41,122 bases of DNA. Source: an uncultured Bacilli bacterium. Lineage in GTDB: Bacteria; Bacillota_I; Bacilli_A; RF39; UBA660. The position numbers and the translations under genes were made by a program. The first letter of the stretch is position 1. Each line of letters starts with the position of its first letter. This document shows, one piece after another, positions 7,855 to 34,700 of the stretch. Location: assembly GCA_944372025.1 (NCBI GenBank), contig CALVYE010000002.1, forward strand, positions 1 through 41,122, in the 5' to 3' direction. The notes under the pieces were generated by a model, which ran no database searches, was not told the origin of the DNA, and saw only the letters and a list, made by a program, of their open reading frames with translations.

Positions 7855-8016
7855 AATTAAAACACCTCCAAAGTTTAACGGCAAATATATTATATCATTT
7901 TAAAGTCAATAAATAAAGAAGTTTATTTTATTATATTCATTATTATAATATTAAATTTACTCAATAAAATAAAAAATTACAAAATTCAACTTGTAATCTT
8001 TCATAAATAATAAGTA

Positions 8017-10682: not shown

Positions 10683-10709
10683 TTTTGATCACCCTCTTAC
10701 ATCAGGCTT

Positions 10710-12494: not shown

Positions 12495-13177
12495 GATGGC
12501 AACACCGTATTAAATGTAGTACTTCTTCCATTATTTAGGAAGTTATCAAGTAATACTCTTAAGTCTTCATTTGTGGTTTGCATAGCAACTAATCCTGTAC
12601 CCGTAAATCCGCTTATTAAATCCCTTAATTTCTTTTGCATTACATCATCCTTCTTTTCTTGGAACAATAAATAATACTCAGTATCAACTACATCATTATC
12701 AATGAACAGTTGGGCTTTATCCAAATCTTCAGTTATTAGCTTTCTAATTTTTGGATTTGGAGTATTATTATAAAGTAATTGTAATTGTGAAATATAAAGT
12801 GTTATATCTACAGGTCTATCTGCCACTATAATCCAAAATTCATAATCTATTGTGTTATATAAATTTCTTAGAGAAATTAAAATATTAGCTTGTGATTCTG
12901 GATCAAGTATAAAGATATTTCTAGGAGTAATTTTAACACCTGTAACTTTCCATTTATTTTCCAAAATTATTGTTCCATTTTGTATATTTTCTACAGTTAT
13001 CCAATTTTCTGCATACTTTCTTGCTTGTTCATCTGTCTTACTAACAGGTTTTGGTGTTGGTCTTGGTGTTGAAGCTTGATTTGTTCTTGGCGCACCACTT
13101 TGTGATTGTGGCGCATTGTTATTTTGCGGTTGAGTAACAGTTGTCCTTGGTTGTTGATTATTGGTTATAATAGCCAT
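12491..13177 (-). CDS. VirB4 N-terminal module encoded as a separate ORF, with a Q/P/N-rich disordered leader
   Basis: WITVENIQNGTIILENKWKVTGVKITPRNIFILDPESQANILISLRNLY... matches the pattern at the N-terminus of full-length Gram-positive VirB4 proteins. AAGGAGGTG RBS present. 228 + 594 aa gives 822 aa, about the full-length VirB4 size. Confidence 0.55.
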   Translation of the reverse strand: MAIITNNQQPRTTVTQPQNNNAPQSQSGAPRTNQASTPRPTPKPVSKTDEQARKYAENWITVENIQNGTIILENKWKVTGVKITPRNIFILDPESQANILISLRNLYNTIDYEFWIIVADRPVDITLYISQLQLLYNNTPNPKIRKLITEDLDKAQLFIDNDVVDTEYYLLFQEKKDDVMQKKLRDLISGFTGTGLVAMQTTNEDLRVLLDNFLNNGRSTTFNTVLPS

Positions 13178-13210
13178 AATCTAAACACCTCCTTATTATT
13201 CTTTATATAT

Positions 13211-13528
13211 TTATTTAAAATCGTCATCATCATATATACACCAGCCTCGCCATATATATATTCTGCGTTGTGTAAAAAATCTAAATATATTCATAATTAC
13301 CACTAATACATTGTGATAATTAGGTACTGGCATAACTAAGAATGCACATATTCCTGCAGGTAATAAAGTAATTATTACTTGCCACAATTCTTTTGTTAAT
13401 CCTAACATAATTAGTACTAAGGTAACTCCTATACCTGATGCTAAAATACCTAAATCTATAGGTCTAAATAATCCTAAGATTAACTTGCTTTTTTTAGAAT
13501 TAGCAGGTATTAAATATGATTCATCCAT
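13211..13528 (-). CDS. PrgI-family / VirB3-like small membrane protein
   Basis: 105 aa with two TM helices. Begins YLIPANSKKSKLILGLFRPIDLGIL, as PrgI/Orf17-type proteins do. Positioned immediately upstream of VirB4. Confidence 0.5.
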   Translation of the reverse strand: MDESYLIPANSKKSKLILGLFRPIDLGILASGIGVTLVLIMLGLTKELWQVIITLLPAGICAFLVMPVPNYHNVLVVIMNIFRFFTQRRIYIWRGWCIYDDDDFK

Positions 13529-13545
13529 TTATATCACCCTTTTTC

Positions 13546-15525
13546 TTATTTTTTACCACTATTCATTAACTTTTCTTCATGTTCAACAACTTTATTAGCA
13601 ACAGATTGTGCATATTTATCAATTTCTAATCTTTCGGCTGCTGTAGTAGGTCTTATAGCATCACCAGCATCATCATATATATTTTGATAGAAGTTTCTTA
13701 CAATGCCATCGGCACCTGTTACATTGTTTTGATAATCACCACTGTATGTTTCTGGATCTATTCCCGCAGATTTACAATATGATTCGTATGCACCTTTATT
13801 TTTAAAGTTACCATCAGAATTAACTTGTAACTCTGTTCCATTTGTAAGACCTCTATTAACACGATCTTTTATAATATCCATAGCATTTTGCATATTTTGA
13901 ACTTTATATCCCGCATTTATTGCATTAACTTTAGCAGCTTTTAAACCAGGCGTTTTTTCTCTTTCTGGAGTTGCATATGCTAATTGTCTTGTTAAACTGT
14001 CTTGCCCTGCAGCTATCATTCCACCAAATCCAGCATCTCTACCTTTTAATGTTTGCGAAACTAAATTTCTACCCAATACTGATCTGTTATATACACCTTT
14101 ATCATTATAATTTTTCTTTTGTAATCTAGCTAAAGATTCAGCAGCTGTTGCTTTTCCACGGATTTTTGTGTTATTCCAAGAATTTTTCAAATTTTCTCGG
14201 ATTGCTTTACCTTTTTCACCCTTGCCGCCTTTAACCAGTCCTTTAACTGTTCCTGCAGCAACACCTCCTAAAAGACCAGCACCAGCACCAACTGCTCCTG
14301 CAGCAGCACCTCCTAAAAGACCAACACCGGCACCAACAGGTCCTGCTTTTGAAAGCTTATTTCTAAAGCTAAGACCATAATCACTTGATCCATCGCCTTT
14401 AATACCAAACATATCTTTAATTAGATCTGGTGCTTGTTTAGCAAACATTAATAACCCCAGAATTACTGCAGCTTTAGCAAATAAAGCTGTAGCAAAATCA
14501 ACAGATTCATTAACTTCACTTAAATTGTTTATTAATGAAGGTACTAAACGTATAATATATATAATAAAATATATTATTGCCAAGCGAATAAATATATCAG
14601 CATATGCCATTAATGAAGATTTTGCCCATTTATAAAATGGTCCATCTTTTTTACCATCAATATAACTTACAATTGGAATGGGTGCAATAATTTGATAAAA
14701 AGAAAGTTTAGCTACTCTAAGTCCAATATCCAAACAATATACAGCGAATATAAATGCCGCAAAACCTCCTGCTATTGTCGAGATTAAAAATGTATAGTCG
14801 ATACAAAATTCGTCTTTTCCTGTATCACTGCTCTCATATACATTTGTTATTACCGGAAACATTGTAGACACCCCTGTATTTGTATCTACGGCACCACTGT
14901 CTGATATTCTATAAAGCTCAAGTAACGCAGATAGGCTATCATTACATGCATCTTTTGCGTCAGCGTTCAAAATTGTGCTTGGATCTAAATCTTCTATATT
15001 CATAATATTCTGATCAGGATTTTCCATAGCATTAGCATTTATCGAAACAAAACTAGAAAATATTTGATTTGATATATTCTGTCCATCGTCTATATCTTCT
15101 GAGCTATTATCGTTGTAATTATCATTACCAATTATAACTTTTCCAATAACATTTTCAGATAAAACAATTTCCTGTAATTGATAAGCTCTGTTAAATATTT
15201 CGGGTATAATAATAATTAGTGCCAACATTACAAAAATTCTTGTAGCAATTTTTCCAACACTTTTTTCCCCTTTAGATCCATCACTAGGACTTACCATCAT
15301 ATTTATAAGTACAAAAACAACTTTAAATAATGCATAGACACCTATTAAAACATAAAGTCTCTCAAATAATTCAACATAGAAAGGATCTTCAGAAGAAAAG
15401 AGTCTAATTTGTGAGATAGCATTGAATAAATTATAAAAAATTCTGACACATGTATATACTACCAAATCCAAAAGCATGAAGAGTAATCTAAAAAGTGTCA
15501 TAAATAATCTTTCATACCATGCCAT
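13546..15525 (-). CDS. Polytopic VirB6/TrbL-like T4SS channel protein with a Gly/Ala-rich segment and a soluble C-terminal domain
   Basis: At least six hydrophobic helices. Contains the segment GPVGAGVGLLGGAAAGAVGAGAGLLGGVAAG and a hydrophilic tail of about 190 aa. Sits between the VirB2-like and VirB3/VirB4-like genes. Confidence 0.55.
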   Translation of the reverse strand: MAWYERLFMTLFRLLFMLLDLVVYTCVRIFYNLFNAISQIRLFSSEDPFYVELFERLYVLIGVYALFKVVFVLINMMVSPSDGSKGEKSVGKIATRIFVMLALIIIIPEIFNRAYQLQEIVLSENVIGKVIIGNDNYNDNSSEDIDDGQNISNQIFSSFVSINANAMENPDQNIMNIEDLDPSTILNADAKDACNDSLSALLELYRISDSGAVDTNTGVSTMFPVITNVYESSDTGKDEFCIDYTFLISTIAGGFAAFIFAVYCLDIGLRVAKLSFYQIIAPIPIVSYIDGKKDGPFYKWAKSSLMAYADIFIRLAIIYFIIYIIRLVPSLINNLSEVNESVDFATALFAKAAVILGLLMFAKQAPDLIKDMFGIKGDGSSDYGLSFRNKLSKAGPVGAGVGLLGGAAAGAVGAGAGLLGGVAAGTVKGLVKGGKGEKGKAIRENLKNSWNNTKIRGKATAAESLARLQKKNYNDKGVYNRSVLGRNLVSQTLKGRDAGFGGMIAAGQDSLTRQLAYATPEREKTPGLKAAKVNAINAGYKVQNMQNAMDIIKDRVNRGLTNGTELQVNSDGNFKNKGAYESYCKSAGIDPETYSGDYQNNVTGADGIVRNFYQNIYDDAGDAIRPTTAAERLEIDKYAQSVANKVVEHEEKLMNSGKK

Positions 15526-15542
15526 ACCAATTTACTCCTTTC

Positions 15543-15938
15543 TCAGAATCTAATTAATGCGTCTAAACACGTATTTCCAAAACCAGCAACATTTAAAATA
15601 AAACTTAATATCATAGGTACAAAAAATATTGTTATCCCTATTATCAATCTTTTTACAAAATCACTCTGAGCTTGTTTTATTTTTTCATCATTTTGTGCCA
15701 CTATAGCTTTAACAAAATCTATAGTACCAAGCAAAATCAGAAGTATTGGAATAAATATTTTAACCATGCCCAATATATCTTGAATATATCCTGCTGTACA
15801 AGGATAATCAGGACACGCAGAAACTTCTTCGACAGGGCAATCCAAAGTATCTGCATAACCTAATTTATATCCAACAAAAAACATAAAAAAGGTTAATACA
15901 ATTAATAATTTATAACTTTTGTATCTATTTTTGGACAT
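15543..15938 (-). CDS. VirB2/TrbC-like small membrane protein, paralogue 2 (signal peptide, two TM helices)
   Basis: Signal peptide, then a Cys-containing N-terminal stretch, then two helices split by the loop QNDEKIKQAQSDFVKR. Clearly paralogous to the 16042-16404 product. Confidence 0.4.
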   Translation of the reverse strand: MSKNRYKSYKLLIVLTFFMFFVGYKLGYADTLDCPVEEVSACPDYPCTAGYIQDILGMVKIFIPILLILLGTIDFVKAIVAQNDEKIKQAQSDFVKRLIIGITIFFVPMILSFILNVAGFGNTCLDALIRF

Positions 15939-15992
15939 GCTAAAACCTCCATACAGTATAAGATATATACATTATATCATAAAATAAATCAA

Positions 15993-16022
15993 AAAAACAG
16001 AAAAAATTAATTTTCTGTTTTT
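15993..16022 (-). terminator. Hairpin terminator or attenuator between the two VirB2-like genes
   Basis: CAGAAAA / TTTTCTG stem extended by A/T runs on both sides. Confidence 0.45.
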
Positions 16023-16041
16023 GGTATTTTTATCCTGTTTT

Positions 16042-16404
16042 TTAAACGTCTACTTTACATTCAGCATTGTTAGGACTAGTAATACATTTTAAACATTGTG
16101 TATCTGTACTTTGATTTAACATACTCATTAATAAAGTAACAATACTAGGTATAAAGAATATAATTACCCCAACAATTGCTCTTTTCAAAAGTGTTGATTG
16201 AGCTTTTTTAATTTCATCATCTTTAGAAGCCATAACAGCTTTTGTTAAATCGATACTTCCCATTAAAATAAGTATAATTGGAACAGCAATTTTAATTATT
16301 GTTATAATATTCCCAATAAATCCAAATATAGATAATAAACCTGTATCTGGATCACATATACCAGTACCATCAGCTGCACTTGCCATAATATTAATTAAAT
16401 CCAT
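16042..16404 (-). CDS. VirB2/TrbC-like small membrane protein, paralogue 1
   Basis: 120 aa with the same two-helix core (PIILILMGSIDLTKAVMASKDDEIKKAQSTLLKRAIVGVIIFFIPSI) and a Cys-containing tail. GAGGAGG RBS present. Confidence 0.4.
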   Translation of the reverse strand: MDLINIMASAADGTGICDPDTGLLSIFGFIGNIITIIKIAVPIILILMGSIDLTKAVMASKDDEIKKAQSTLLKRAIVGVIIFFIPSIVTLLMSMLNQSTDTQCLKCITSPNNAECKVDV

Positions 16405-16486
16405 ATATTTTCCTCCTCAAAAGTTATCAATAATTTAATTACAAAACAATTATATCAATATATATTTATTTTGTAAATAAAAAATC

Positions 16487-16909
16487 TTATTTTTGAACAT
16501 TATTTACATCATCTGTGCTATTATTTTCTTCAACTTTAGCTTTTATTACATCTATATAGTAATATTTGGGTGTTGTAGATGTATCTTGTACTTCTATGAC
16601 AATTTGATTATAGCCTTCTTTAAATTTTTCGTTACCTTTAACTGATACACTTGCACCTTTTTCATAAGGTACTATTGTTATATCTAAATAATCAACATCA
16701 TTGTTTACTTCTACTAAATATGCATATCTTTCAGGATTAAAATCAATTTCATAGTTTTCTATTAGCATATCTTGTATTCCAGGATTTTGAACTTCTTTTT
16801 TTACACCTTTTGTAAAATATAAAATGGTCATTACTATTAGAAGAACTGCTAAAGTAATATTTACAATAAATGATACTTTAAATCCTTTTTCCATATCTAT
16901 AGTAAACAT
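16487..16909 (-). CDS. Membrane-anchored protein with a cadherin-like beta-sandwich domain
   Basis: N-terminal TM helix. FNPERYAYLVEV...YLDITIVPYEKGASVSVKGNEKFKEGYNQIVIEVQD...YYYIDV fits the bacterial cadherin-like beta-sandwich pattern. Confidence 0.45.
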   Translation of the reverse strand: MFTIDMEKGFKVSFIVNITLAVLLIVMTILYFTKGVKKEVQNPGIQDMLIENYEIDFNPERYAYLVEVNNDVDYLDITIVPYEKGASVSVKGNEKFKEGYNQIVIEVQDTSTTPKYYYIDVIKAKVEENNSTDDVNNVQK

Positions 16910-16966
16910 AGTATCAACTCCTATTATGTCTATATTATAACAAAATAATGATTTATTAACAATAAT

Positions 16967-16993
16967 AAAAAAGCAAATGTTATTTGCTTTTTA
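16967..16993 (-). terminator. Rho-independent terminator after the Tad-module genes
   Basis: AGCAAAT / ATTTGCT stem with a 3-nt loop, flanked by A and T runs. Confidence 0.55.
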
Positions 16994-17007
16994 CACATTA
17001 CAATACT

Positions 17008-17448
17008 TTAATATAAATCCCAATCAGTATCATCTGCAGGTTTTGTTATGACCTTGGTTTCTCCTTTAACAGGAAAAGTAAATAAATTACCTACTATAGG
17101 TAAATTGAAACTAATATATGTTGTAACTTGATAATATATATCTTCATCATTAGTACCTGTTCTTAATCCCTTTATACATACACCTTTAGTATTTTCAGGA
17201 GAAACCCCTCCTTCTTCTCTACTTGAACAGTCTACATTTCTATAATATCCATTGTTAGTTATTACTTGACTTATTTCGACTTCAGAATTTTCATTATATC
17301 CTTCAAGCTGTTCTAATTTATTTATTACTGAATTTTTAATTCTAAATGCTTGTGAATAATTTATCGCAATTGCAAGAAAAGACGCAAAAAAGAAGATGAA
17401 AATAATCATCAGCTTAAATAAAAACGTACTTCCAACTGCTTCTCTCAT
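17008..17448 (-). CDS. TadE-like pseudopilin candidate
   Basis: MREAVG leader followed by a long hydrophobic helix, then a domain of about 100 aa. Lies next to the pilin and TadC-like genes. Confidence 0.4.
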   Translation of the reverse strand: MREAVGSTFLFKLMIIFIFFFASFLAIAINYSQAFRIKNSVINKLEQLEGYNENSEVEISQVITNNGYYRNVDCSSREEGGVSPENTKGVCIKGLRTGTNDEDIYYQVTTYISFNLPIVGNLFTFPVKGETKVITKPADDTDWDLY

Positions 17449-17498
17449 TTTACATCATCTTCCTTTTAAAAAATATAGGTTTTTATAAACATTTTAAA

Positions 17499-17756
17499 TT
17501 AAGCATCTGTACCTGTGATATTACCATCTGCATCTACATTGATTATTGTACCATCTCCACATGTACACTGACCACCGCCGCCCTCTGTTTTAACATAACT
17601 TGTGGCTTCGCCTTCTGGGCATATATTTTTACAGGTATTTAAATTTAAACTCCCTTGAATAGCAGGCCAAACAAATGCATAAAACAATGCCACTATTGCT
17701 GCTATTGCAACTATTGTTACAACTGTCATATTTAATTCTCCAGTTGCCTCTTTCAT
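17499..17756 (-). CDS. Small pilin candidate (Flp-like size, class III-type leader MKEATG)
   Basis: 85 aa with a short charged leader ending in Gly, a 25-aa hydrophobic helix, and a short Cys/Gly-rich head (CKNIC...GGGGQCTCG). Confidence 0.45.
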   Translation of the reverse strand: MKEATGELNMTVVTIVAIAAIVALFYAFVWPAIQGSLNLNTCKNICPEGEATSYVKTEGGGGQCTCGDGTIINVDADGNITGTDA

Positions 17757-17849
17757 TAACCATCAATCCTTTCACTCTTATTATTAACAATTATATTGTA
17801 TAATATTTATTTAAATTATTCAACATTTTGTTTAATTATTTACATTATT

Positions 17850-18644
17850 TTACATACCAGTATTTTGTAACATCATTAACATTGATACCATAAGTAATAC
17901 TACTACTCCTCCACCTGTTACTCCAAGCATTACCATAGTTTTACTTTGCATTTTTTCTAGACGTTCCTTATATTTTTGCTCACGCGCTTTATTTTGCAAT
18001 GATGAAACAGTTTTTGAAAGTAACAATAATTGTTCTTGTTTATTTTCTTGGATACCAAGCCCAAGTCTATATAAAAGTCTCATCATACGCATTGAATCTC
18101 TTACGGGATAAGTTTTTGCGAATTCCATATATGGATCTATTGAAGAATCTCCAGCTTCAATTTTAGCAATTAAGGTTCTAAGTCCTTGTTTAAATATGTC
18201 TGGAGCATCATCAACAGACTTAGCAAGCGCAACAGGTACGGTATAATGTTGAACTAGTACTTCTATAGTTTTTAAATAGTATGGTAATAATAAATCAATA
18301 TCATGTAAATGTTTTTTGTAATATGATTTTAAATTAAAATATTGTGATTTAAAAATATATCCTGCAATTAATCCGCATATTAATATATTTAAAAAACTAA
18401 TATTAGTAATAAATAGTATAAACATTATTCCAAAGATTAATACTGCATTTTTAATTCTTTTGTTGAATAAAACATCTGGATTTACATTTTCACCGTATTT
18501 AGCCATAACTAGAAAGTCATAGTCATTTTCTTTTAATAGTTTTACATACACACTATTATCTTTAAAAAATTGATTGGTATTTACTGAACCATTAACGAAT
18601 AATATTATAAATATTATTGCGGCTACCACTAATATTTCCCACAT
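17850..18644 (-). CDS. TadC-like (T2SSF/GspF-fold) pilus platform protein
   Basis: N-terminal TM helix, a TM pair, a cytoplasmic helical domain and a C-terminal TM helix. Its start shares 1 nt with the TadB-like stop. Confidence 0.55.
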   Translation of the reverse strand: MWEILVVAAIIFIILFVNGSVNTNQFFKDNSVYVKLLKENDYDFLVMAKYGENVNPDVLFNKRIKNAVLIFGIMFILFITNISFLNILICGLIAGYIFKSQYFNLKSYYKKHLHDIDLLLPYYLKTIEVLVQHYTVPVALAKSVDDAPDIFKQGLRTLIAKIEAGDSSIDPYMEFAKTYPVRDSMRMMRLLYRLGLGIQENKQEQLLLLSKTVSSLQNKAREQKYKERLEKMQSKTMVMLGVTGGGVVVLLMVSMLMMLQNTGM

Positions 18645-19546
18645 TATTCAGCACCTACATTCTCATTATAATATTTTTCACCATTAAGTAAAAATCCACT
18701 ATTGAATAATAATATCGCATGAAGTGTCAACTGAACATACCATAAATCTAACATTTTTACATATGAATCTACACCTAATAATAATTGTATAACTGCTACA
18801 AGCAAGTATAACATTATTCCATACATTAAAAATCTTTTATGGAAGTCTTGTCTATCCATTCTATCTCTATAAACACCTTCTACAAGAGTATCTATGTCGA
18901 GTGACATATTATCTAGAGAATCTGTAATATCATGTGCACCTTCTTTGGTAACTTGTAAAAATAATTGATGCATGTTTTTAACTATGTAGTATGGATATTT
19001 AATATTCATATATTCTATTGAATCATCTATTTGTCCGTTTTCATATGCCATTTCTACCATTTTTTTAACATCACTTAATACAGGATCTTCTAAAACTCCT
19101 GATGCAGCAACTCCTTCAATGGCTTTTACGAAAGATTTTGTTGTTTGATACTCCATTATTGTATTAGTGGCATATACTTGAATTTGTTCAAAGATAAATT
19201 CACTATATACTCTTTTATATCTTAAATATGCAAGATATGGTATTACAGCTACTGCTATTAGAGCATAGATTATAGACCATATTATACTATAGAAATATAA
19301 ATATGAAATACCACCAGCTACACCAGCAAATATTACTACTTGAGTTATATATTGTCTAGGTGTATAGTCAGCTTTTAGATCTCTGACTTTCTTTCTCATT
19401 TCTTTATATGAATATGGTGCTATCTTTTCATATACTACTTCTAATTTTGCATTGACATATTTATAAAGGCTATCTCCTTTTTTAGAACGGTATGTTATTA
19501 TGAATAATGCAATAAATGCAATTATAACAAATATAAGAAAATCCAT
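18644..19546 (-). CDS. TadB-like (T2SSF/GspF-fold) pilus platform protein
   Basis: Same topology class as the TadC-like gene. Immediately downstream of the CpaF-like ATPase. Confidence 0.55.
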   Translation of the reverse strand: MDFLIFVIIAFIALFIITYRSKKGDSLYKYVNAKLEVVYEKIAPYSYKEMRKKVRDLKADYTPRQYITQVVIFAGVAGGISYLYFYSIIWSIIYALIAVAVIPYLAYLRYKRVYSEFIFEQIQVYATNTIMEYQTTKSFVKAIEGVAASGVLEDPVLSDVKKMVEMAYENGQIDDSIEYMNIKYPYYIVKNMHQLFLQVTKEGAHDITDSLDNMSLDIDTLVEGVYRDRMDRQDFHKRFLMYGIMLYLLVAVIQLLLGVDSYVKMLDLWYVQLTLHAILLFNSGFLLNGEKYYNENVGAE

Positions 19547-19559
19547 AATATCACCTACT

Positions 19560-20642
19560 TTACATTATTATTTCTTCTTCTTGAACTTCTGGAGCCATAA
19601 CAGATTTTGGTAAAGTTATTCCCTGTGCATCTAAATATCCAATTAAATATTTGGTTGGATTACTTCTAAAAATTCTTCCATCAGAAGTTTTTTTGTAAAT
19701 TGCATGATGTCCAGGTTTATTATCTTCGGTAACAAAGAACTCTGTAACTTCAACAATTTCTCTTTGAAATCTATTATATTCTTTTGAGAAGTAACCTCTA
19801 ATATGAACACCTAATTGTACATATCTATGAATTGAGTTTAAGAATTGTTCAATATCTTGATTTGATTCAAGCAAACTATACATACGACTAGGTATAGATT
19901 CGGCTTTATCAGAGTGAATTGTAGACAATATGTTATGTCCTGATGAAATAGAGTTTCTTACTGCCATAACTGCTTCTGCACTTCTGACTTCGGATAATAA
20001 TATCCATTTAGGGTTTTGTCTCATACATGTTACTAATACATCTGAATATGAAGCAATGTTATTTGTTTTCATCGCAACTATATCTCTATGTGGAAAGATT
20101 CTGTCTAAGTGTAATTCTAAGGTGTCTTCTATAGTAATTAGTTTTTCATTTTCATAAGTATGAGAAGCTAAATACTTAACAAACTCTGTTTTACCAGATC
20201 CAGTTTCCCCACTTACAATAATATTACAGTGTCCATGAACGCATTCTATTAGAAAATCATGTACATCCATCGTTACATAATTTTCATTTAATAGTTTATC
20301 TTTATTAAGTCTTATTTTAGCAGGGGTTTTTCTTAATACTGCAGCAATTCCATTTCTTGCGATTGAGTCATGAACAAAGTTAAGACGAAGTTCTGAACCT
20401 TCGGCATCAAGAAAAGGTTCTGCCATATTAAAAGTCTTACCCATTGCGTTAGAACATTGGAATGCAAGTTTTTCCATTAAAGCATTGTTAACTTCAGGAT
20501 TTTCAATTCGATAAACTCCCTTTGTTAAAGATTTTAACCACAGATTTCCACCATTACTATATGATATATCAGTTATATCATCGTTATCTAAGTATTGTTG
20601 TAGAGGTCCAAAATCTATATGTTCAAATACATTATCATTCAT
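19560..20642 (-). CDS. CpaF/TadA-type secretion ATPase (T2SSE/VirB11 superfamily)
   Basis: Walker A SGETGSGKTE, Asp-box ITIEDTLEL, Walker B ILLSEVRSAEA, His-box STIHS. Confidence 0.8.
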   Translation of the reverse strand: MNDNVFEHIDFGPLQQYLDNDDITDISYSNGGNLWLKSLTKGVYRIENPEVNNALMEKLAFQCSNAMGKTFNMAEPFLDAEGSELRLNFVHDSIARNGIAAVLRKTPAKIRLNKDKLLNENYVTMDVHDFLIECVHGHCNIIVSGETGSGKTEFVKYLASHTYENEKLITIEDTLELHLDRIFPHRDIVAMKTNNIASYSDVLVTCMRQNPKWILLSEVRSAEAVMAVRNSISSGHNILSTIHSDKAESIPSRMYSLLESNQDIEQFLNSIHRYVQLGVHIRGYFSKEYNRFQREIVEVTEFFVTEDNKPGHHAIYKKTSDGRIFRSNPTKYLIGYLDAQGITLPKSVMAPEVQEEEIIM

Positions 20643-20644
20643 TA

Positions 20645-21517
20645 TTATTCTTCCTCAGTATTATTTTGAATTTCGTCAGTAGAATCATCTGTTAATTGAT
20701 CTTCTGGAACATTAACTGTTCTATCTTCAATATATTGCCTTAAATATGAGCTTGTTACTTCTACTGCTCCCTCATATTCATCATCACTAATAGATTCTAC
20801 AACAGGTACTGGTATTAACTCTACATTTAAGTAATTTGCTTTTCTAAGAAGTAAGTGTAAATCTTCACTAACACCAAAAATTAGTGTAGATGGTGTCCTA
20901 TTTTCTTCAGTATTTTCAAATACATCTCTACCACTTGAATCTAAAACCGCTAAGACTTTTACATCTTTAAGTAACATTCCAATCATTGGCTTACCAGTAT
21001 CATCTTCTGCTTTCATATAAATATTTACATATGTATCATCCATTATAGCATTACCATATGTGTCAGCAAAGTTAATAGAAAATGCATATGGTATTTGTCC
21101 CTCATCAATTTTTAGTAAAACTGAAGATGGTATTTTTGAACGGTCTACAACGTTAACATTTCTTATTAGAACTGAACCTTGTGGTATTAATGAATTTATA
21201 TTCGCATATGCCCCATTTTCAAAAGCACTATTAAGTTCAGCAGCACTTCTTATTACTGACGCTCCAGCTGTATTAGAGCCCATCATTTTATCATACATTA
21301 CTTTTGCAATTTGTATTGTTTCAACCATATCTGTTGTTATCCTAGTTCTAGGTTGAATGTTTTGTTTAGCAACAACAACTGATATTTGTTCAACTTGTTG
21401 ATTTATTCTCCAATTATATCCAAAGTAAAGTATAGCTATACCAACCAAAGTCCCTAATATTGTTACTGTGTTTTTATTAGTAATAAATTTTTTTAATGAA
21501 GCAACAAAATTGTTCAT
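20645..21517 (-). CDS. CpaB/RcpC-like Flp pilus assembly protein (SAF domain)
   Basis: N-terminal TM helix followed by the SAF-like VVVAKQNIQPRTRITTDMV. AGGAGG RBS precedes the ATG at 21517; the track start is a GTG two codons upstream. Confidence 0.55.
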   Translation of the reverse strand: MNNFVASLKKFITNKNTVTILGTLVGIAILYFGYNWRINQQVEQISVVVAKQNIQPRTRITTDMVETIQIAKVMYDKMMGSNTAGASVIRSAAELNSAFENGAYANINSLIPQGSVLIRNVNVVDRSKIPSSVLLKIDEGQIPYAFSINFADTYGNAIMDDTYVNIYMKAEDDTGKPMIGMLLKDVKVLAVLDSSGRDVFENTEENRTPSTLIFGVSEDLHLLLRKANYLNVELIPVPVVESISDDEYEGAVEVTSSYLRQYIEDRTVNVPEDQLTDDSTDEIQNNTEEE

Positions 21518-21600
21518 AAACACTTCCTCCTATCATAATATAATAATTATAACATAATTATTTTTTTTAAGCGATATATTTTTTTGATTTTTATTATAAA

Positions 21601-21631
21601 AATAGAACAATACACAAAATATTGTTCTATT
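21601..21631 (-). terminator. Hairpin overlapping the stop of the 134-aa gene
   Basis: TAGAACAAT / ATTGTTCTA stem with a 9-nt loop and a T-rich tail on the minus strand. Confidence 0.4.
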
Positions 21632-22031
21632 CTATATTAGTAGTTTCTAAAATTGCATCTATTCTGTTAACTATATCAAATTGATCTCCTGTAAAGCTAA
21701 ACACATTACTTTTTGCTCCCACACTTAAACTAACTTTCGGAGGCATTTCTACTATATCGAAAAAATTAATATCATATGTTTTCGTAAATCCAGCACTTTC
21801 AGCATATCTTCTAATAAAGTTTTCTACAAATTTTTCTTTATCTATTGCTAATTTATCATATTTTCTATAATAGGCAATATCTACAGAATCTATCATTGCT
21901 GCTTCTGTAATTTCTTTTACTAGATAATAATTTTGATCATTTGTACTTGTTATGTCTTGAAATAGAAATACTATTGCTATACCTAAAATTCCTATTACAA
22001 TTATAAAATATCCCCAAAATGACTCTTTCAT
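21627..22031 (-). CDS. Prepilin-like or bitopic small protein (MKESFWG leader plus hydrophobic helix)
   Basis: 134 aa. The leader resembles those of the 85-aa and 146-aa proteins. The gene abuts the stop of the 934-aa gene. Confidence 0.35.
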   Translation of the reverse strand: MKESFWGYFIIVIGILGIAIVFLFQDITSTNDQNYYLVKEITEAAMIDSVDIAYYRKYDKLAIDKEKFVENFIRRYAESAGFTKTYDINFFDIVEMPPKVSLSVGAKSNVFSFTGDQFDIVNRIDAILETTNIE

Positions 22032-24836
22032 TTAATCACCATCTTCTGAAAAATCTCCAATTTTTTTTCTTCTCTCATTATTGCTTGGCAGTTTAATATT
22101 ATCTATTTTCCCTAAATTAGCACTATCAGCGTTTGAATTGCAATTTGTTCCATTCAAGAGACATGTTAAAAAATTACTTGTTCTTTCAACACTGTTATAT
22201 TCTGTAGATAAAGTATCCCAATCAAGATACCCTTTATTACTATCTTGCAAATCATTATATTTTTGAATTCTAGATATAAGATCAGGAGTTAATTTAATTG
22301 AATATATTGGATCACTATAAACTGTATCTCCTTTTATATTTGTACTTGTTCCTGTAATGTATTCTTCAACTTTTGTATTACGAGAATTCAATGCTTGTCC
22401 AAACCAATTTGGTCCAATATCTCTATTATTTGGGAATGGGTTAGTAAGAGATATAGGTCTAAAATAATATGGAGTATTATTAACCTTTATAGGCGGAGTT
22501 TCATCATCAGGAGGGTCAGGATCGTCATCATCAATACAAGTGCCATCTTTAATACAATTTGCAACTAAATATGAACAAGTATATGGTTTATTTCCAGAAT
22601 TTATTTCTCCTAATAACCCACCATTGTTGATACTTATTTCGAAATCATAATATCCTGATTCATCATTTACACTTGTATATATTTTATTTCCTCCATCTAA
22701 ATAATTTGATGTAATTATTGGTTTTTTACCTGTATAATTATTATAACTGTCATCTCCTCCTACTTGATTTATATAATATTTAGGCAACATCATATTATAT
22801 GATACATCAAAACTAATTGATTGAATTACATTGTAAGAATTATAATTGTAAACTGGATAAGATCGATATCTTCCATAACGATCATAATAGGATTCATAAT
22901 GATCAATGCATCGATAACTACGTCTTCTTGTGCTTATTTCAGGAATTTGAGATTTAAGATCAGTAAGTATGACAGTAGTTTCATCTCCATTACTATTATT
23001 ATCATTGTTGTCATTTGCAAACATATATATATATTCTTTTGTATTTCCTACACCTGGCAATATTTGCTTAAAAGTTATTGTTTGATTTTTAAGGTTATTA
23101 ATATCAATACGATTATATGCTGTTTCCATTGCCTCATTGTAATCATCAATATCATCCTCTAAGTTATCACACCACTTGTACCCTCCTCCTGAATATGTAT
23201 TTGAAGGTTCATTACCAGTAATTGAAACAGTATCCACTATTTTTAGATTATATTCAAAACCTCGACCAGCATCTATCATTGGATAAGCTTTATTTTTATT
23301 TGGATAATTTGTAGAAGTAATCTCAAATGTTTCTGTAACTTGTATTTCTGAATTACTCTCTGTGTATTCTCTTTCCCATGGTTGATTTTTGCAAGTTCGA
23401 TTTCTCCCATCATCATCATATTTTTTTATTTCATCATCTGAAGAATCACATACTTTGTTCCAATTTGAATTTATTTGTTGTGTTGTTATAGGGCAACAAA
23501 TTAAAGCGTTTTTTTCAAAAGTTTCCTCGTCTGCACTTTCACAACATTCTTCTCTGTGAGAAGAAAAATAATCGGCATTATTACATTTATTTTTTTCAAC
23601 TATAATATTTTTGCATCTAGATGTGTTTTTATATTGATTTGTTTTACAACAATGATTCGAATCATTTATATTAACATTCCAACTACAACTTTTTTTACAT
23701 CTAGAATCATTTTGGTATTCTGGATAATTACAACAATGTGATTGATCAGATCTATCAACGTTCCATTTGCATGAAAATTCATATCCTGAACATTTTTGGT
23801 TGTATTGTTCTTTTATAAAAGGATTATTAAGATATGATGCAAATGTTTTTAATGTTGGAAGTTTTTCTCCATTAACGTATATATTATAATCAATTTCAGG
23901 ATTTGGATTACAACATAATTCTTGCATATTCCAAACAGTAGAATTCCATACATTTGGATCATTTATTGTTGCTGCACCATTTGAACCATCACTTCCACAA
24001 CATGTTTCAGGATATTCATAGCAACATTCATTTTCGTGTTTATATGCATAGCTTTGATCCTTACATTGATTGTAATTTGGATCATCATATTCAAATACAG
24101 CTACAAAAGGTACCCAATAATGATATACTCTAGATACATCTTCTCCTCCCCCACTTATTCCATTCCATCCTAATCCAGCCCAAGCCGCATTATCTCCCAT
24201 TGCTGTTAATCTTCCTACATATACATTGTATGAAAATTCATTATTAGCTTTATCCAGTCCAATTTTTGATACTGTATAGTTTTCAACCTTCCAAGTATTC
24301 CAAAAGTCAAATGTACTTTGATTTAAAGGATCAGGTTTACTATTATTAAAATTTAATGCTTCTATACTTATAAGTTCTACATTATTTTTATCTTGTAATT
24401 GAGTAGGTAATGGGTCACTTACATTGTATGATAAATCCATTAGTGGACACACTTGAATTCCAAGTCCTCCAGCTACTTCCCAGTAACCATCTCTTCCTAC
24501 CCAAGCATCGATTCTTCCTGAATCATAAAAATACATTCTTATTCTTTTACCATTATCTATTGATTCTGTTTTATATTTAGCTCCATCTACTCCCATTCGT
24601 CTTAATTCTTCTATGGCACATTTATTCATACCAGTATCTGATGAACCAGCATTTGTATCATTCTTACAAAATGATTGTGCACCAGAATAATGTGATCCAT
24701 CAAATCTTCCAAAAGTAGGCAATTCACTACTTGGACATGTACTTCCCCAAGCATCATAACTTCTAGCATATATTTTAAATGGAAACATTAGCAAAATAAA
24801 TAAACCTAAAAAAACTATATTTATTTTATTTTTCAT
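22032..24836 (-). CDS. Large secreted cysteine-rich protein (candidate adhesin or tip protein), function unknown
   Basis: Type I signal peptide. The Cys-rich core holds seven CC dipeptides and a tandem repeat of about 29 aa. Has an acidic/Pro linker DDDDPDPPDDETPP. No LPXTG motif and no C-terminal TM helix. Confidence 0.6.
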   Translation of the reverse strand: MKNKINIVFLGLFILLMFPFKIYARSYDAWGSTCPSSELPTFGRFDGSHYSGAQSFCKNDTNAGSSDTGMNKCAIEELRRMGVDGAKYKTESIDNGKRIRMYFYDSGRIDAWVGRDGYWEVAGGLGIQVCPLMDLSYNVSDPLPTQLQDKNNVELISIEALNFNNSKPDPLNQSTFDFWNTWKVENYTVSKIGLDKANNEFSYNVYVGRLTAMGDNAAWAGLGWNGISGGGEDVSRVYHYWVPFVAVFEYDDPNYNQCKDQSYAYKHENECCYEYPETCCGSDGSNGAATINDPNVWNSTVWNMQELCCNPNPEIDYNIYVNGEKLPTLKTFASYLNNPFIKEQYNQKCSGYEFSCKWNVDRSDQSHCCNYPEYQNDSRCKKSCSWNVNINDSNHCCKTNQYKNTSRCKNIIVEKNKCNNADYFSSHREECCESADEETFEKNALICCPITTQQINSNWNKVCDSSDDEIKKYDDDGRNRTCKNQPWEREYTESNSEIQVTETFEITSTNYPNKNKAYPMIDAGRGFEYNLKIVDTVSITGNEPSNTYSGGGYKWCDNLEDDIDDYNEAMETAYNRIDINNLKNQTITFKQILPGVGNTKEYIYMFANDNNDNNSNGDETTVILTDLKSQIPEISTRRRSYRCIDHYESYYDRYGRYRSYPVYNYNSYNVIQSISFDVSYNMMLPKYYINQVGGDDSYNNYTGKKPIITSNYLDGGNKIYTSVNDESGYYDFEISINNGGLLGEINSGNKPYTCSYLVANCIKDGTCIDDDDPDPPDDETPPIKVNNTPYYFRPISLTNPFPNNRDIGPNWFGQALNSRNTKVEEYITGTSTNIKGDTVYSDPIYSIKLTPDLISRIQKYNDLQDSNKGYLDWDTLSTEYNSVERTSNFLTCLLNGTNCNSNADSANLGKIDNIKLPSNNERRKKIGDFSEDGD

Positions 24837-25489
24837 AGTATCCTCCTTTTTCTTTTAATAGTTCTAAAAATTATAATTAATATTATTATAAAGATAATTA
24901 CTACGATTGAAATTATTAAAATCATATTTATATTTAAGGGATTATTTGTTTCATCTATATTATTTTCTACAATAGTTTGTTCTTCTTTTATTAAACTTTT
25001 TTTATATTCTGATAGTTCTTTTTGAAATGTGTCTTCATTTATTATTCCTTGATAGTCTGGATTACAAAGTTGAAACTCGTTATAGTCTATATTTTCGCAT
25101 TCTTCTCTATCAGCAAATAAATTATATTTTTTTATATAAATATTTTGATCGGTAGATATATCTAAATCACAGTTTATTTCATTACTAAAAAGAAAACTAA
25201 ATTTGTATGATCTTCCTCCTTGATAATTTCCACCTGTTACAGTATTATTATTACTAATATACTCTGTACCTCCTGTATCATAAATTATTATATCGTTAGG
25301 TACATTATAAAATGTTATAGAAAAATTATTATTTCCGAGATGATTAAATTTATATTTTATACTTTTAATTTTATTATATATTTCATTTGTTACTTCTTTT
25401 GAACACGTTTGTGCAAAAGTATTTACTGGTATTAAAAATAACATTAATAAAATCAAAAAATTAAATATTCTTTTTTTTAAATAATTCAT
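24833..25489 (-). CDS. Secreted protein with a C-terminal TM anchor, function unknown (first gene of the block)
   Basis: Signal peptide (…VNTFAQ), a C-terminal hydrophobic helix and a basic tail RTIKRKRRIL. ATGA overlap with the next gene. Confidence 0.5.
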   Translation of the reverse strand: MNYLKKRIFNFLILLMLFLIPVNTFAQTCSKEVTNEIYNKIKSIKYKFNHLGNNNFSITFYNVPNDIIIYDTGGTEYISNNNTVTGGNYQGGRSYKFSFLFSNEINCDLDISTDQNIYIKKYNLFADREECENIDYNEFQLCNPDYQGIINEDTFQKELSEYKKSLIKEEQTIVENNIDETNNPLNINMILIISIVVIIFIIILIIIFRTIKRKRRIL

Positions 25490-25574: not shown

Positions 25575-27083
25575 TTATTTATTTAATGTTTTCTTTAAAA
25601 CTTTTTCAGTAGATTCTTTCTCAATTGAATAACCATTTTCGTATACAGTAGGATTTAAATACTTTGCATAGTATTCTTCTAAACATAAATTTTCTTCAAC
25701 CATTTTTGTAGCAACATCAATTCCTACATATCTATATACCCAAGGTTGATATTCTCTACGAGTGATAAATTTTTTATCTTCAGGGAATCGTTCTACAAAG
25801 CCATATTTATATGCATTATTTTTCAACCAGTTATACATTTCATTATATCTTTGTTGATAAATTAGGTTGCTATTATAATTTTCTTGTTCCTGTTCTGTTA
25901 AAGCCCTATAATTGTTCACTATATATTCATACATAATATTTTCGCTATACATCAAAGATATTGTTAATCCCGTTCTAAATTCTGAACAATTTGGATTAAT
26001 ACTGTAGTCAAATGCATATTTTTCAAGAGTCCCCTGAGGTATTCTAGTCATTCCTTCAAATCTATATGAATATAATTCGGATGACGCTTGATTATAGTTT
26101 AAATAATTTTCATATGCTCTCAAATTGTTAGGATGTTCACCAGTTTCAAGATTATAAGCATTAGACATATTAGTATATTGCTCTTCGGCTTCTTTTCTTA
26201 AAAACGCCGATGTAGGTGAAATTCCGCCAGTAGGTGCATATTTGTGTTCGACAAGATCCTTTGGTTCATAATCTTTTGGTATAGAATTATATCCATTTAC
26301 TAATACTGTCATACTGTCCAAATTAGTAGCTGGTTCTACATCCTTAGGATCTGCTTCATAATGAGATAGTCCATTATAAGTGATATCTCCTTCTTTATTA
26401 TTTACTGTAACTAAAATGTATTCTCTATCCAAATCCATATTAACATCCATAATAACTTGTTCAATAGATAATTCTGGATGTTGTTTTCTGTATTCTACAT
26501 ATCTTTTTGTATCTTTTGGATTATAGTTTACATCTAATACATGACTTATTACTTCTTTTTCAATTTCATCTAAGGTGCTTTCTTCTTTTTCTATTGTTAC
26601 TGTTTGTTCTTTATCATTCCATTCTACTTCTGCACTTAACGTCTCTGCTACTGCTCTTAAGGGTATCAATGTTCTATCATTTAATATTGTTGATGCACTA
26701 TCAAATGTTTTTGTTTCACCATTTAAATCAAAAGTGTTTGTTCCTATTGTATGGGTTAATACATCTCCTTCTTTTGTTAGTGCCATTACTTTATTTTCAC
26801 TATTATTATAATATATTATACATCCCATGCTTTCAAATACTTTTCTAAATGGTACTAGCGTTCTATCATTTACTAAGATTGGCTTTTGGTCAAATTCTAT
26901 TTTCTCTCCATTATAATATACTTCTATTTCTTCTTGTGTATTTGTTTTATTTTGTCTTATATTATTTGCGCTTACATAATTGTTTTCTTTTGCTAATACT
27001 ATGCTGTTACTCCCTAGCAGGATTGTTCCTGCTACTACTATACTTCCTATTTTTTTCATTATTTCTTTTTTTTCTTTCTTCAT
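25575..27083 (-). CDS. Secreted protein with a copper-amine-oxidase-N-like (stalk) domain and a degenerate VanY/M15B D-Ala-D-Ala carboxypeptidase-like domain
   Basis: Signal peptide. LVNDRTLVPFRKVFE and LNDRTLIPLRAVAE repeats. The C-terminal half aligns with the 29951-31105 VanY-like protein, but with SEH changed to SEF, D to S, and WH to WV. AGGGGAG RBS precedes the ATG at 27083. Confidence 0.6.
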   Translation of the reverse strand: MKKEKKEIMKKIGSIVVAGTILLGSNSIVLAKENNYVSANNIRQNKTNTQEEIEVYYNGEKIEFDQKPILVNDRTLVPFRKVFESMGCIIYYNNSENKVMALTKEGDVLTHTIGTNTFDLNGETKTFDSASTILNDRTLIPLRAVAETLSAEVEWNDKEQTVTIEKEESTLDEIEKEVISHVLDVNYNPKDTKRYVEYRKQHPELSIEQVIMDVNMDLDREYILVTVNNKEGDITYNGLSHYEADPKDVEPATNLDSMTVLVNGYNSIPKDYEPKDLVEHKYAPTGGISPTSAFLRKEAEEQYTNMSNAYNLETGEHPNNLRAYENYLNYNQASSELYSYRFEGMTRIPQGTLEKYAFDYSINPNCSEFRTGLTISLMYSENIMYEYIVNNYRALTEQEQENYNSNLIYQQRYNEMYNWLKNNAYKYGFVERFPEDKKFITRREYQPWVYRYVGIDVATKMVEENLCLEEYYAKYLNPTVYENGYSIEKESTEKVLKKTLNK

Positions 27084-27160
27084 TTTTTCTCCCCTATCTT
27101 TTTTCAAAGGATAGTTTTATCATTAGAAGAATACTGCTGTTATCTAGTAGGTTTTTTTAC

Positions 27161-28219
27161 CTAACTATCGCTTTGTCTACTTATTATAGTTATTTTTTCT
27201 GTTTTGTCAAATTTTGGTTTTTGGTGTTTAGCAAGTTCTTTAATGCTTTCAACTGATAATCCTGTTATGTTAGAAATTAAATTAATATCTAAATTATTAG
27301 AAATCATATTTTTGGCGATTTCTCCTTTTTCTTGATTTATTCCTTGATTTATTCCTTTTATCATTCCCTGTTCTATTCCTTGTTTTATACCCTGCTTTAT
27401 TCCCTGTTTTATACCTTCATCAATACCTTGTTCTAAGCCTTCTTCTATTCCTTTTTTAATACCTTCATTAAACCCTTCTTCTTTTGCTTTTTGTCTTTCG
27501 AAACTTAAAATACTTGCTCTTACTTTTCTCTCATGAAGTTCTCCATCATATAGTCCTATAATATGTTCATCATTACTTAGTCTCTCGACTTCATTTACTA
27601 AGCTTTTACCTATTTCTCCCATATAATAACTCCTTTTTTCTATCTCTTCTAAATTTGTAGCTTTCAAAATTTTTACCCATATATTTAACTTTTCTTTTAT
27701 AGTTTCATTGTAGCACATTTTATTTATATAATCTATATCTATGTGATGGATTTCTAAGTTTTCTGTAAGTAAATTTTTACCTTTGGAATCATATAATTTA
27801 TATATTACTTTTTTTCTTTTATTTTTTGTAACACTAAAGTTATTGAAATTAATTTGTATACACTTTTTTGTTTTGTTATATTCATCATCGGTAATAAATT
27901 GCTCTGAAAAAATTTTACAAATATACGCAGTATTTCTTTCGATTAATCCAGGATAATTTCTATTAGCGTTCATTTCTAAATTTATTATTTCTTTCTCATT
28001 TAATTCTATAATTACATCTACACTTTTCTTTTTATCTTTTTTATTATTTTTAATTAACTCACTATTTAATATTTTTATTTTACCTTCTAAGTACTCGTAA
28101 TCCATATTAAAATAATCACTCAAAAATTGAGTTAAAATTTTTATATTTTTTTCGTTTCCGAAAAGTGCTTTAAACATAAAATCATATGTTAAAGGTATTA
28201 TTTGTTTTTCTTTTATCAT
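27161..28219 (-). CDS. Rpn-family recombination-promoting nuclease / putative transposase (PD-(D/E)XK, YhgA-like)
   Basis: N-terminal PLTYDFMFKALFG and VDVIIEL...INLEMN core motifs typical of the family. C-terminal tetrapeptide-repeat region. AGGAGG RBS present. Confidence 0.65.
   Translation of the reverse strand: MIKEKQIIPLTYDFMFKALFGNEKNIKILTQFLSDYFNMDYEYLEGKIKILNSELIKNNKKDKKKSVDVIIELNEKEIINLEMNANRNYPGLIERNTAYICKIFSEQFITDDEYNKTKKCIQINFNNFSVTKNKRKKVIYKLYDSKGKNLLTENLEIHHIDIDYINKMCYNETIKEKLNIWVKILKATNLEEIEKRSYYMGEIGKSLVNEVERLSNDEHIIGLYDGELHERKVRASILSFERQKAKEEGFNEGIKKGIEEGLEQGIDEGIKQGIKQGIKQGIEQGMIKGINQGINQEKGEIAKNMISNNLDINLISNITGLSVESIKELAKHQKPKFDKTEKITIISRQSDS
27332..27481 (-). repeat. Coding 12-nt periodic repeat (about 12 copies of x-G-I/L-x: GIKKGIEEGLEQGIDEGIKQGIKQGIKQGIEQGMIKGINQGINQ)
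   Basis: Read from the translation, approximately aa 247-296 of the Rpn-like protein. Confidence 0.7.
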
Positions 28220-34685: not shown

Positions 34686-34700
34686 AATGACAACCTCCGA

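Follow-up and report, generated by a model that had tools for sequence, protein, structure and literature searches.

A conserved glycine-ended N-terminal motif in candidate pilin-like proteins of a type IV secretion locus in uncultured gut Bacilli

A short N-terminal motif, M-[KR]-[ED]-x-x-(W)-G, is shared by three families of small membrane proteins which are encoded in one gene module of an uncultured gut bacterium of the Bacilli. The module was studied in contig CALVYE010000002.1, a complete 41-kb metagenome scaffold (41,122 nucleotides; this whole stretch is called the window below) with a GC content of about 28% and with nearly every gene on the minus strand. Positions 16487-22031 of the window comprise eight genes with products of 134, 292, 360, 300, 264, 85, 146 and 140 amino acids (aa), among them a secretion ATPase. 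We found that the motif is conserved in related loci far beyond chance, that the module lies in a type IV secretion system (T4SS) locus, and that it has homologues among the genes of Gram-positive conjugative plasmids. As a tentative explanation, we favour the view that the small proteins are pilin-like subunits with a new, class-III-type leader, which would be cut in trans by a prepilin peptidase also serving two prepilins with the FTLVE motif encoded on the same contig. The leader by itself may be less interesting than its context, a relaxase-less chromosomal T4SS-plus-filament locus.

Conservation of the short leader

An earlier note on this DNA had pointed to near-identical leaders ending in glycine in three small proteins of the module and to a different N-terminus in a fourth one. 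All open reading frames (ORFs) and the N-termini of the four proteins proved to be exact on the minus strand. The 85-aa protein (17499-17756), a candidate major subunit, starts with MKEATG, which is followed by E, a hydrophobic helix and a variable, Cys-rich tail (MKEATGELNMTVV). The 146-aa protein (17008-17448), a candidate minor subunit, starts with MREAVG followed by S (MREAVGSTFLF). The 134-aa protein (21627-22031; MKESFWGYFIIV) starts with MKESFWG followed by a hydrophobic helix and belongs to the Pfam family DUF5411 (PF17424, E 1e-51). The fourth, bitopic protein of 140 aa (16487-16909; MFTIDMEKGFKV) has MFTIDMEKG followed by F. Since an in-frame TGA is located three codons 5' of the start codon of the 85-aa and the 146-aa gene alike, and since the start of the 134-aa gene directly follows the stop codon of the upstream gene, the leaders are at most 6, 6 and 7 residues long, respectively.

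The comparison covers 84 related loci of uncultured Bacilli from the gut and of Mycoplasmatota-like genomes. A genome scan with one genome per species gave at least 593 matching genomes, of which 80 loci were retained. Nearly all of these are labelled as uncultured Bacilli, "Tenericutes", Mollicutes, Clostridium sp. CAG:302/CAG:914 or Candidatus Fimihabitans, names which NCBI places in Mycoplasmatota incertae sedis.

In the 85-aa family (57 unique sequences of 46-96 aa, a Flp-like length) the N-terminus is the best-conserved part, with 84% conservation in the first 12 residues as compared to about 55% elsewhere. The consensus is M-K-E-A-[T/A]-G-E, with K2, E3, G6 and E7 each present in at least 98% of the sequences (G6 in 56 and E7 in all 57). 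The tail is variable and often Cys-rich, and 36/57 members have a Pro about 21-25 residues past the Gly. The 146-aa family, with 105 unique homologues and usually two paralogues per locus, follows M-[RK]-[EDQ]-[ASG]-hydrophobic-G; G6 was found in 98 of them and is among the ten best-conserved positions of a family with a mean column identity of just 23%. For DUF5411, 148 representatives were taken from a library of 1.84 billion proteins. Their consensus is MKESFWG, with K2 in 121, E3 in 107, W6 in 127 and G7 in 119 of them (about 80%). Where the leader glycine is replaced, it is mostly by small residues (A, S, N).

Thus, a short polar segment ending in Gly with a hydrophobic stretch directly after it is present in all three families, and the length of the leader is constant at 6 or 7 residues. 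MKEATG and MREAVG are as long as the leaders of the two type IV prepilins of the contig (MKNKKG and MENKKG). The 85-aa and 146-aa families have a common N-terminal segment (hhalign P 4e-5), as is the case in pilins. When the pattern ^M[KR][ED].{2,3}G plus a hydrophobic stretch was run on the gene sets of the related loci, it matched 163/246 members of the three families and 1/1455 other genes, and this sole other gene is itself a stray DUF5411 homologue.

Starts with MK or MKE are common in low-GC genomes, and the likeness could in principle be due to the AT-rich sequence at start codons (ATG AAA GAA) and to coincidence. However, this would not account for the background of one in 1455 genes, nor for the conservation of G6, G7, W6 and E7 in families that are otherwise conserved to 23-55%. 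The position counts and the background exclude a chance origin, to which we assign a probability close to nil. The leader, which according to the earlier note should be sought in homologous loci, is indeed nearly invariant there, and it differs, as the note had stated, from both the Flp motif G/xxxxEY and the type IV pilin motif G/FTLxE. The short-leader motif appears to be undescribed, and DUF5411 is scarcely treated in the literature.

Relationship of the module to Tad systems

The ATPase of the module (360 aa; 19560-20642, minus strand) has a T2SSE domain which scores above the Pfam cut-off (1.4e-26). More than 7500 homologous matches were obtained, the best 120 of which are all at least 74% identical. 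Of the structures in the PDB, CpaF matched best (2e-17), then FlaI and then VirB11; of the NCBIfam models, VirB11 matched best, with TadA-type and TrbB models next and all of them far below their cut-offs. The protein is best described as a "CpaF/VirB11 family" protein of the T2SSE superfamily, which stands between CpaF and VirB11 and is assignable to neither.

The 292-aa bitopic protein (20645-21523, minus strand) matched TIGR03177 (1e-6) and Pfam RcpC (1e-4), both below the curated cut-offs, and its alignment to genuine CpaB by hhalign gave a P of 1.2e-4 over 163 columns. These three concordant tests point, weakly but consistently, to a CpaB/RcpC-like protein. The platform position is occupied by two polytopic membrane proteins of 300 aa (18644-19546, minus strand; in 81/84 loci with 70% mean column identity) and 264 aa (17850-18644, minus strand; in 78/84 loci with 63%). 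Their identity as TadB and TadC was tested and found no support. Pfam T2SSF was not matched by the copies in the window, and among 37 homologues of each it was marginal in 2/37 members of the 264-aa family (E 0.058). Profile searches of PDB sequences were empty for both, hhalign against TadB/TadC of annotated tad loci of Ralstonia, Burkholderia and Rhizobium gave P >0.1 throughout, and an AlphaFold2 (AF2) model of the 300-aa protein, of low confidence (predicted local distance difference test, pLDDT, 64), had no Foldseek match in the PDB. The alignment of the 300-aa family with the 264-aa family by hhalign was uninformative.

No protein of the module matched TadZ/ParA models of Pfam or NCBIfam, and a Flp pilin with the G/xxxxEY motif is absent from the module. 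Most related loci (L007-L083, e.g. L019:16641-17639) harbour a well conserved cytoplasmic gene of about 330 aa with a degenerate P-loop-like sequence, KNVTKQSGATT, which is not found in the window; as a candidate TadZ it was negative in Pfam, PDB profile and hhalign searches. Pfam and PDB searches with the 146-aa family returned stray sub-threshold matches only (DUF1512, DUF4320 and once the "Tad" family).

The earlier note had spoken of a Tad-type module with the machine genes CpaB, CpaF, TadB and TadC. Of these, CpaB is matched weakly, though consistently; the ATPase is equally close to VirB11, and TadB and TadC give no T2SSF signal. Since most of the defining Tad features fail, with a T2SSF platform, Flp, TadV and TadZ all being undetectable, the module should not be filed as Tad. 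It may nonetheless work like a Tad system. It shares with Tad/Flp (type IVc) systems a CpaB-like protein, a CpaF-like ATPase and small subunits of Flp size, and its leaders, which end in [KR]-[DE]-x-x-G, resemble those of Ralstonia and Burkholderia Flp, which end in RDEQG/QDERG. In contrast to Tad/Flp systems, the window module is without detectable T2SSF-type TadB/TadC, TadZ, TadV and G/xxxxEY, its leader has only 6 residues, and the subunits are located after the ATPase in a comG-like order.

A more orthodox Tad-like set is present on pXO1 of B. anthracis (L095, 2974-8438). Besides an annotated CpaB and a CpaF/VirB11 family ATPase that is about 30% identical to that of the window, it encodes an AAA ATPase placed where TadZ would be expected, a 310-aa membrane protein, and two proteins of 67-68 aa with a longer leader, whose Gly-terminated end, NEDSQLSSENG, is followed by MLIAL.

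The module is part of a type IV secretion locus

The module belongs to a T4SS locus, on which the earlier note is silent. Directly downstream of the module, two tandem, diverged VirB2-like paralogues of 120 and 131 aa are encoded at 15543-16404 on the minus strand (Pfam T4SS_pilin 4.9e-4 for the 120-aa protein); such VirB2-like pilins occur in one to five copies in 49 loci. Gram-positive T4SSs are usually described as being without VirB2 homologues (PMC12102498). The core of the T4SS (5734-15525, minus strand) was recognised with Pfam and NCBIfam and consists of a VirB6-like protein (659 aa), a 105-aa protein, a split VirB4, a CHAP hydrolase, a lipoprotein and VirD4. The latter belongs to the CD1115 family (304 bits, above the curated cut-off), and the VirB6-like protein shows a weak match to the Mbov_0396 family of mycoplasma integrative and conjugative elements (ICEs). 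VirB4 is split into 228 and 594 aa (10710-13177), which correspond to the N- and C-terminal parts of the mycoplasma ICE model Mbov_0397 (E 3e-104), and the split recurs in related loci. The presence of VirB4, VirD4 of the CD1115 family, a VirB6-like protein and a wall hydrolase together in one locus is as in the pLS20-like (MPF-FATA) T4SSs.

According to ORF calling and clustering, the canonical gene order often starts with a 6-transmembrane protein of about 535 aa, and continues with a 218-aa protein, a large variable secreted protein, the DUF5411 protein, the CpaB-like protein, the ATPase, the 300-aa, 264-aa, 85-aa and 146-aa proteins, usually a second 146-aa paralogue, the cytoplasmic protein of about 330 aa, the VirB2-like pilins, VirB6, the 105-aa protein and VirB4.

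The scanned proteins of the window gave no match to a relaxase or an integrase; about ten further flanking ORFs were judged by sequence alone. The flanking genes look like housekeeping genes by their sequences (yunB-like, rseP-like, cdsA-like, rpsP, miaB-like). The whole T4SS-plus-module locus (5734-25489) is chromosomal, relaxase-less and flanked by housekeeping genes, and it resembles the relaxase-less T4SSs of Patescibacteria (PMC12102498). It was found in at least 593 species-level genomes, comprising uncultured gut Bacilli and Mycoplasmatota-like metagenome-assembled genomes, with ATPases that are at least 73% identical. This wide occurrence without a relaxase nearby is a hint of a core function other than plasmid transfer. 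In several genomes the module was found without adjacent T4SS genes, which suggests that it is a unit of its own.

Relatives on conjugative plasmids

The nearest annotated relatives of the ATPase, detected by tblastn among annotated plasmids, are encoded on Gram-positive conjugative plasmids (27-35% identity, E 1e-30 to 1e-43). They include plasmids of the pLS20 family, of the pXO2 type, of the Enterococcus pZB18 type, and of Listeria and Paraclostridium, and the annotations read "CpaF/VirB11 family" or "T2SS/T4P/T4SS family". For comparison, Ralstonia CpaF is about 29% identical with an E of 3e-17, and VirB11 proteins reach 1e-13 to 1e-19. Lactococcal conjugation systems were also considered as relatives; they have no homologous ATPase.

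The order of genes in the pLS20 family corresponds to that of the window locus: an adhesin and, separated from it by one or two small genes, an N-anchored protein with a length of about 125 aa (gene 36), the ATPase (37), two polytopic proteins (38 and 39), a 120-aa N-anchored protein (40), hydrophobic proteins of 47-50 aa (41), VirB2-like, VirD4, VirB6 and VirB4. In pLS20, pZB18 and the Paraclostridium plasmids, a thioester or SpaA-type adhesin is encoded a few genes upstream of the ATPase, before the p36 homologue. Profile comparison by hhalign matched DUF5411 with p36 (P 3.9e-7), the 264-aa family with p39 (5.4e-5) and the 146-aa family with p40 (5e-4); the match of the 300-aa family with p38 is weak and colinear (P 0.011), and that of the 85-aa family with p41 is not significant (P 0.043). 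Plasmids of the pXO2/pAW63, pZB18 and Paraclostridium types have equivalents of pLS20 genes 36-41. A tblastn search for DUF5411 on plasmids gave no match. The plasmids differ from the window locus, which is chromosomal and relaxase-less, in that they have no CpaB-like gene.

In the paper on the pLS20 family, gene 37 is a putative VirB11, while genes 36 and 38-41 are listed as unknown (PMC8557374). A machine-learning survey by Miller et al. (2022) described an operon with CpaF, a PilC/GspF-like gene and DUF5411 in Roseburia, Ruminococcus and Eubacterium as unknown and related to secretion (PMC9523054). As in our loci, the DUF5411 protein adjoins a CpaF-type ATPase there and the other genes are unannotated. 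In contrast to the present work, neither a leader analysis nor a linkage to T4SS genes was reported, and the PilC call derives from one weak result according to the table of that survey (PMC9523054).

The DUF5411 family

The 134-aa protein scored 174.9 bits against the DUF5411 model, which has a cut-off of 30. The family comprises 601 representative clusters. DUF5411 mostly forms the N-terminal part of longer extracellular proteins whose other domains are Big_2 Ig-like or M15 peptidase ones. In the proteins P0244, P0253, P0275, P0271, P0320 and P0323, with lengths of up to 1664 aa, it is fused either to an M15/VanY D-Ala-D-Ala peptidase and SH3 or to Big_2/internalin-like Ig domains. These fusions to extracellular domains fix a topology with the N-terminus inside and the C-terminus outside, and they are reminiscent of modular pilins. 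In the AF2 model of the DUF5411 protein of the window (pLDDT 70), a long helix at the N-terminus is accompanied by two short ones and by a sheet of three strands, a topology compatible with that of pilins. A search for DUF5411 loci of a Clostridia type by means of a distant representative yielded only further loci like those already studied. The window also contains a separate gene for a VanY-domain protein (25575-27107), which is located immediately upstream of the module.

Cleavage of the leader and possible roles of the small proteins

The earlier note had seen neither an A24 prepilin peptidase nor a ParA-like TadZ at the locus, and both absences were borne out by Pfam and NCBIfam searches of the module. 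For the peptidase the result is negative in all six frames of the window (GxGD motif, TadV profile) and within 10 kb of the ATPase gene in the 84 loci (transmembrane-count screen, GxGD motif, TadV hidden Markov model). Any processing must therefore occur in trans. The window encodes two canonical type IV prepilins (33522-35054, minus strand), with MKNKKG and MENKKG each followed by FTLVE (Pfam N_methyl 4e-9 and 3.5e-8), and their presence implies that a PilD/ComC-type A24 enzyme is encoded elsewhere in the genome. A peptidase gene apart from the pilus operon is ordinary: comC of B. subtilis is located away from comG, and tadV of Bifidobacterium breve away from tad.

In several respects the module is like the systems of type IVa pilins and Com pseudopilins (ComGC-GG), the substrates of PilD/ComC. 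Both have a six-residue leader ending in Gly with a hydrophobic helix directly after it, in both the ATPase gene is followed by a gene for a membrane protein, then by those of the major and the minor subunits, and in both the peptidase would be encoded elsewhere. Unlike those pilins, the families of the window have neither F/M at +1 nor Glu at +5, their leader is neutral and they do not match N_methyl; moreover, two membrane proteins of about 280 aa are found here instead of one PilC/ComGB.

The absence of a peptidase from the window and from the surroundings of the ATPase gene weighs against cleaved, pilin-like subunits, and the same holds true for the following observations. The net charge of the leader is neutral (one K/R, one E/D) and not basic, and neither Glu/Asp at +5 nor Tyr at +6 is found. 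Instead, Glu of the 85-aa family is located at +1 and its +5 residue is Thr, and the 146-aa and DUF5411 families have no acidic residue past the Gly. K2, E3 and A4 are more conserved than is usual for a disposable leader. The Gly is absent in one DUF5411 subclade (MKWSFAS, in which both E3 and G7 are gone) and in 7/105 members of the 146-aa family. The homologues of p36, p40 and p41 of pLS20, pXO2, pZB18 and the Paraclostridium plasmids lack the glycine of M-K/R-E-x-x-G, and they keep an acid at position 3 (p40 MLDS/MQEQ/MIES, p41 MLDQNTDR). The two polytopic proteins of the window have no T2SSF match. Finally, a pilin fold was not recovered for DUF5411: Foldseek comparison of the AF2 model with the PDB gave nothing significant, a sequence profile search of the PDB was empty, and the weak Foldseek matches include NTF2-like folds (E 0.1-0.4), the fold of channel proteins of the VirB8 type. 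Of the family-specific class III signal proposed in the earlier note, the family specificity, the conservation and the terminal Gly stand, whereas the neutral charge and the missing acidic +5 do not fit such a signal.

Plasmid homologues without the Gly and with the acid retained suggest that the N-terminal tail could work uncleaved. In this case, M-[KR]-[ED]-x-x-G in the pilin-like or anchor proteins would act on the cytoplasmic side as a tag or as an element of structure that the ATPase and the membrane proteins recognise, the acid at position 3 would act like Glu5 of type IV pilins, and no prepilin peptidase would be needed. We consider this somewhat unlikely. It would agree with the lack of a peptidase gene near the ATPase, with the invariant length of the leader, with the unusual conservation of K2, E3 and A4, with the 146-aa variants that have lost G6 and still have K2 and E3, and with p41, in which the acids are at positions 3 and 7, as in MKEAxGE. 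However, it leaves unexplained why a nearly invariant Gly is placed exactly at the boundary between the polar and the hydrophobic part in three families, and K2 and E3 (and E7) would be hard to bury in the core of a filament. No characterised type IV filament system is known to leave its subunits unprocessed, which also speaks against an uncleaved tail. Further, the relation of the 85-aa family to p41 is not significant.

It is also conceivable that there are no pilins in the module. The ATPase would then be the equivalent of VirB11, and the small proteins would be bitopic parts of a channel or scaffold, for example VirB8-like (NTF2-like) ones, with uncleaved signal anchors which place extracellular domains (adhesin, wall hydrolase) at the machine. 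The position of the module in a T4SS locus and its homology to genes 36-40 of the pLS20 conjugation operon are in line with this, as are the best NCBIfam match of the ATPase, the polytopic proteins without T2SSF signal, the NTF2-like Foldseek matches and the fusion of DUF5411 to M15 wall peptidases in some relatives. We nevertheless regard it as improbable. A filament machine is favoured over channel parts because a CpaB-like gene is present, which is a feature of Tad systems and not of T4SSs, because the module also occurs without neighbouring T4SS genes, and because a family of 46-96 aa is too small for a channel scaffold and has no room for a VirB8-like domain. In addition, CpaF is the best-scoring solved structure for the ATPase, and channel parts would not explain the N-terminal motif ending in Gly that is common to the families.

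If a filament machine is assumed, the removal of the charged tail is to be expected. In the explanation that we tentatively favour, cleaved pilin-like subunits, the module would be a self-contained unit of the filament type, made of the CpaB-like protein, the ATPase of the CpaF/VirB11 clade, the two polytopic membrane proteins and the subunits, with the 85-aa protein as the putative Flp-sized major subunit and the 146-aa, DUF5411 and 140-aa proteins as larger minor subunits. The gene order, in which the ATPase is followed by the membrane proteins, the small subunit and larger subunits, fits this. M-[KR]-[ED]-x-x-(W)-G would be a lineage-specific, class-III-type leader on the cytoplasmic face, which would be removed after the Gly by an A24 prepilin peptidase encoded elsewhere, most simply by the enzyme for the FTLVE prepilins of the contig. 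With the charged K2 and E3 gone, the N-termini could be buried in a filament. The ATPase and the membrane proteins would extract the hydrophobic N-termini from the membrane and assemble them into a short pilus or pseudopilus. Such a filament could help the secretion system to contact cells or to get across the wall. In this view, the module is part of a pLS20-like (MPF-FATA) Gram-positive T4SS locus which uncultured gut Bacilli and Mycoplasmatota-like bacteria carry in their chromosomes.

This is of relevance since, according to reviews, pili and a VirB11 ATPase are both missing from Gram-positive conjugation systems (PMC12857230, PMC11730352). The window locus and its relatives on plasmids of Bacillus, Enterococcus, Listeria and Paraclostridium have an ATPase-centred module with small proteins that look pilin-like. 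Should these undergo processing and polymerisation, a device similar to a pilus would exist in Gram-positive T4SSs, and the rules for the recognition of prepilins (PilFind, FlaFind, TXSScan) would need a new class of signal. If the tails are uncleaved, the motif would be a well-conserved but ordinary membrane-anchor motif. A bolder and rather doubtful generalisation is that the T4SSs of the pLS20 class hold an unrecognised type-IV-filament-like machine, composed of an ATPase, a CpaB-like protein, a highly diverged platform, and Flp-sized and modular subunits, which in gut Mycoplasmatota-like Bacilli would be chromosomal, relaxase-less and nearly universal. Its prepilin signal would be a new one (M-K/R-E-x-x-G), in which Glu is found at +1 and not at +5, or else its subunits would need no peptidase.

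Further genes of the locus and of the window

The first gene of the module (24833-25489, minus strand) codes for a protein of 218 aa which has a signal peptide and is anchored to the membrane at its C-terminus. Homologues in the same position are present in 72/84 loci, and no Pfam or NCBIfam family matched above the cut-off. It is followed by the gene of a 934-aa Cys-rich secreted protein (22032-24836, minus strand), which is highly variable and is located where the plasmid relatives have a surface adhesin. In Pfam no match was found for it; most loci have a large secreted protein of about 600-1460 aa ahead of DUF5411.

The 140-aa bitopic protein gave a match to Pfam Cadherin-like (1.4e-6), a beta-sandwich. 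Homologues were found in 3 loci only, two of them being the window's own or near-identical contigs, and the protein is specific to this lineage. Where most loci have the second 146-aa paralogue and the cytoplasmic gene of about 330 aa, the window has the gene of this protein instead.

A YunB-like gene (Pfam Spore_YunB; 4888-5688) is located just after VirD4 in the window. In two other loci (L091:5793-6539 and L092:384-1130) it was found just before a 234-aa first gene of the module. The YunB-like gene may belong to the secretion system rather than to sporulation.

The longer of the FTLVE prepilins (387 aa, MKNKKG/FTLVE; 33522-34685) has a C-terminal part which matches the ALK/LTK glycine-rich domain PF12810 (E 8e-48), which is odd for a bacterial pilin. 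Further, four tandem paralogues of about 195 aa are encoded at 38450-40989. They start with M-E-N-x-(x)-N/K, which is followed by a hydrophobic stretch and F-A-Y-F-[ST]-A. One of them matches the model of SipW-dependent signal peptides TIGR04088, and the set looks like secreted proteins of the TasA/camelysin type.

Finally, a PD-(D/E)XK "transposase"/Rpn-type nuclease gene (27161-28219), whose product has GI[KE]QG-like repeats at the C-terminus, is located on the stretch from the module to the thioredoxin and SpoU genes; in locus L002 this position is taken by a variant of 332 aa.

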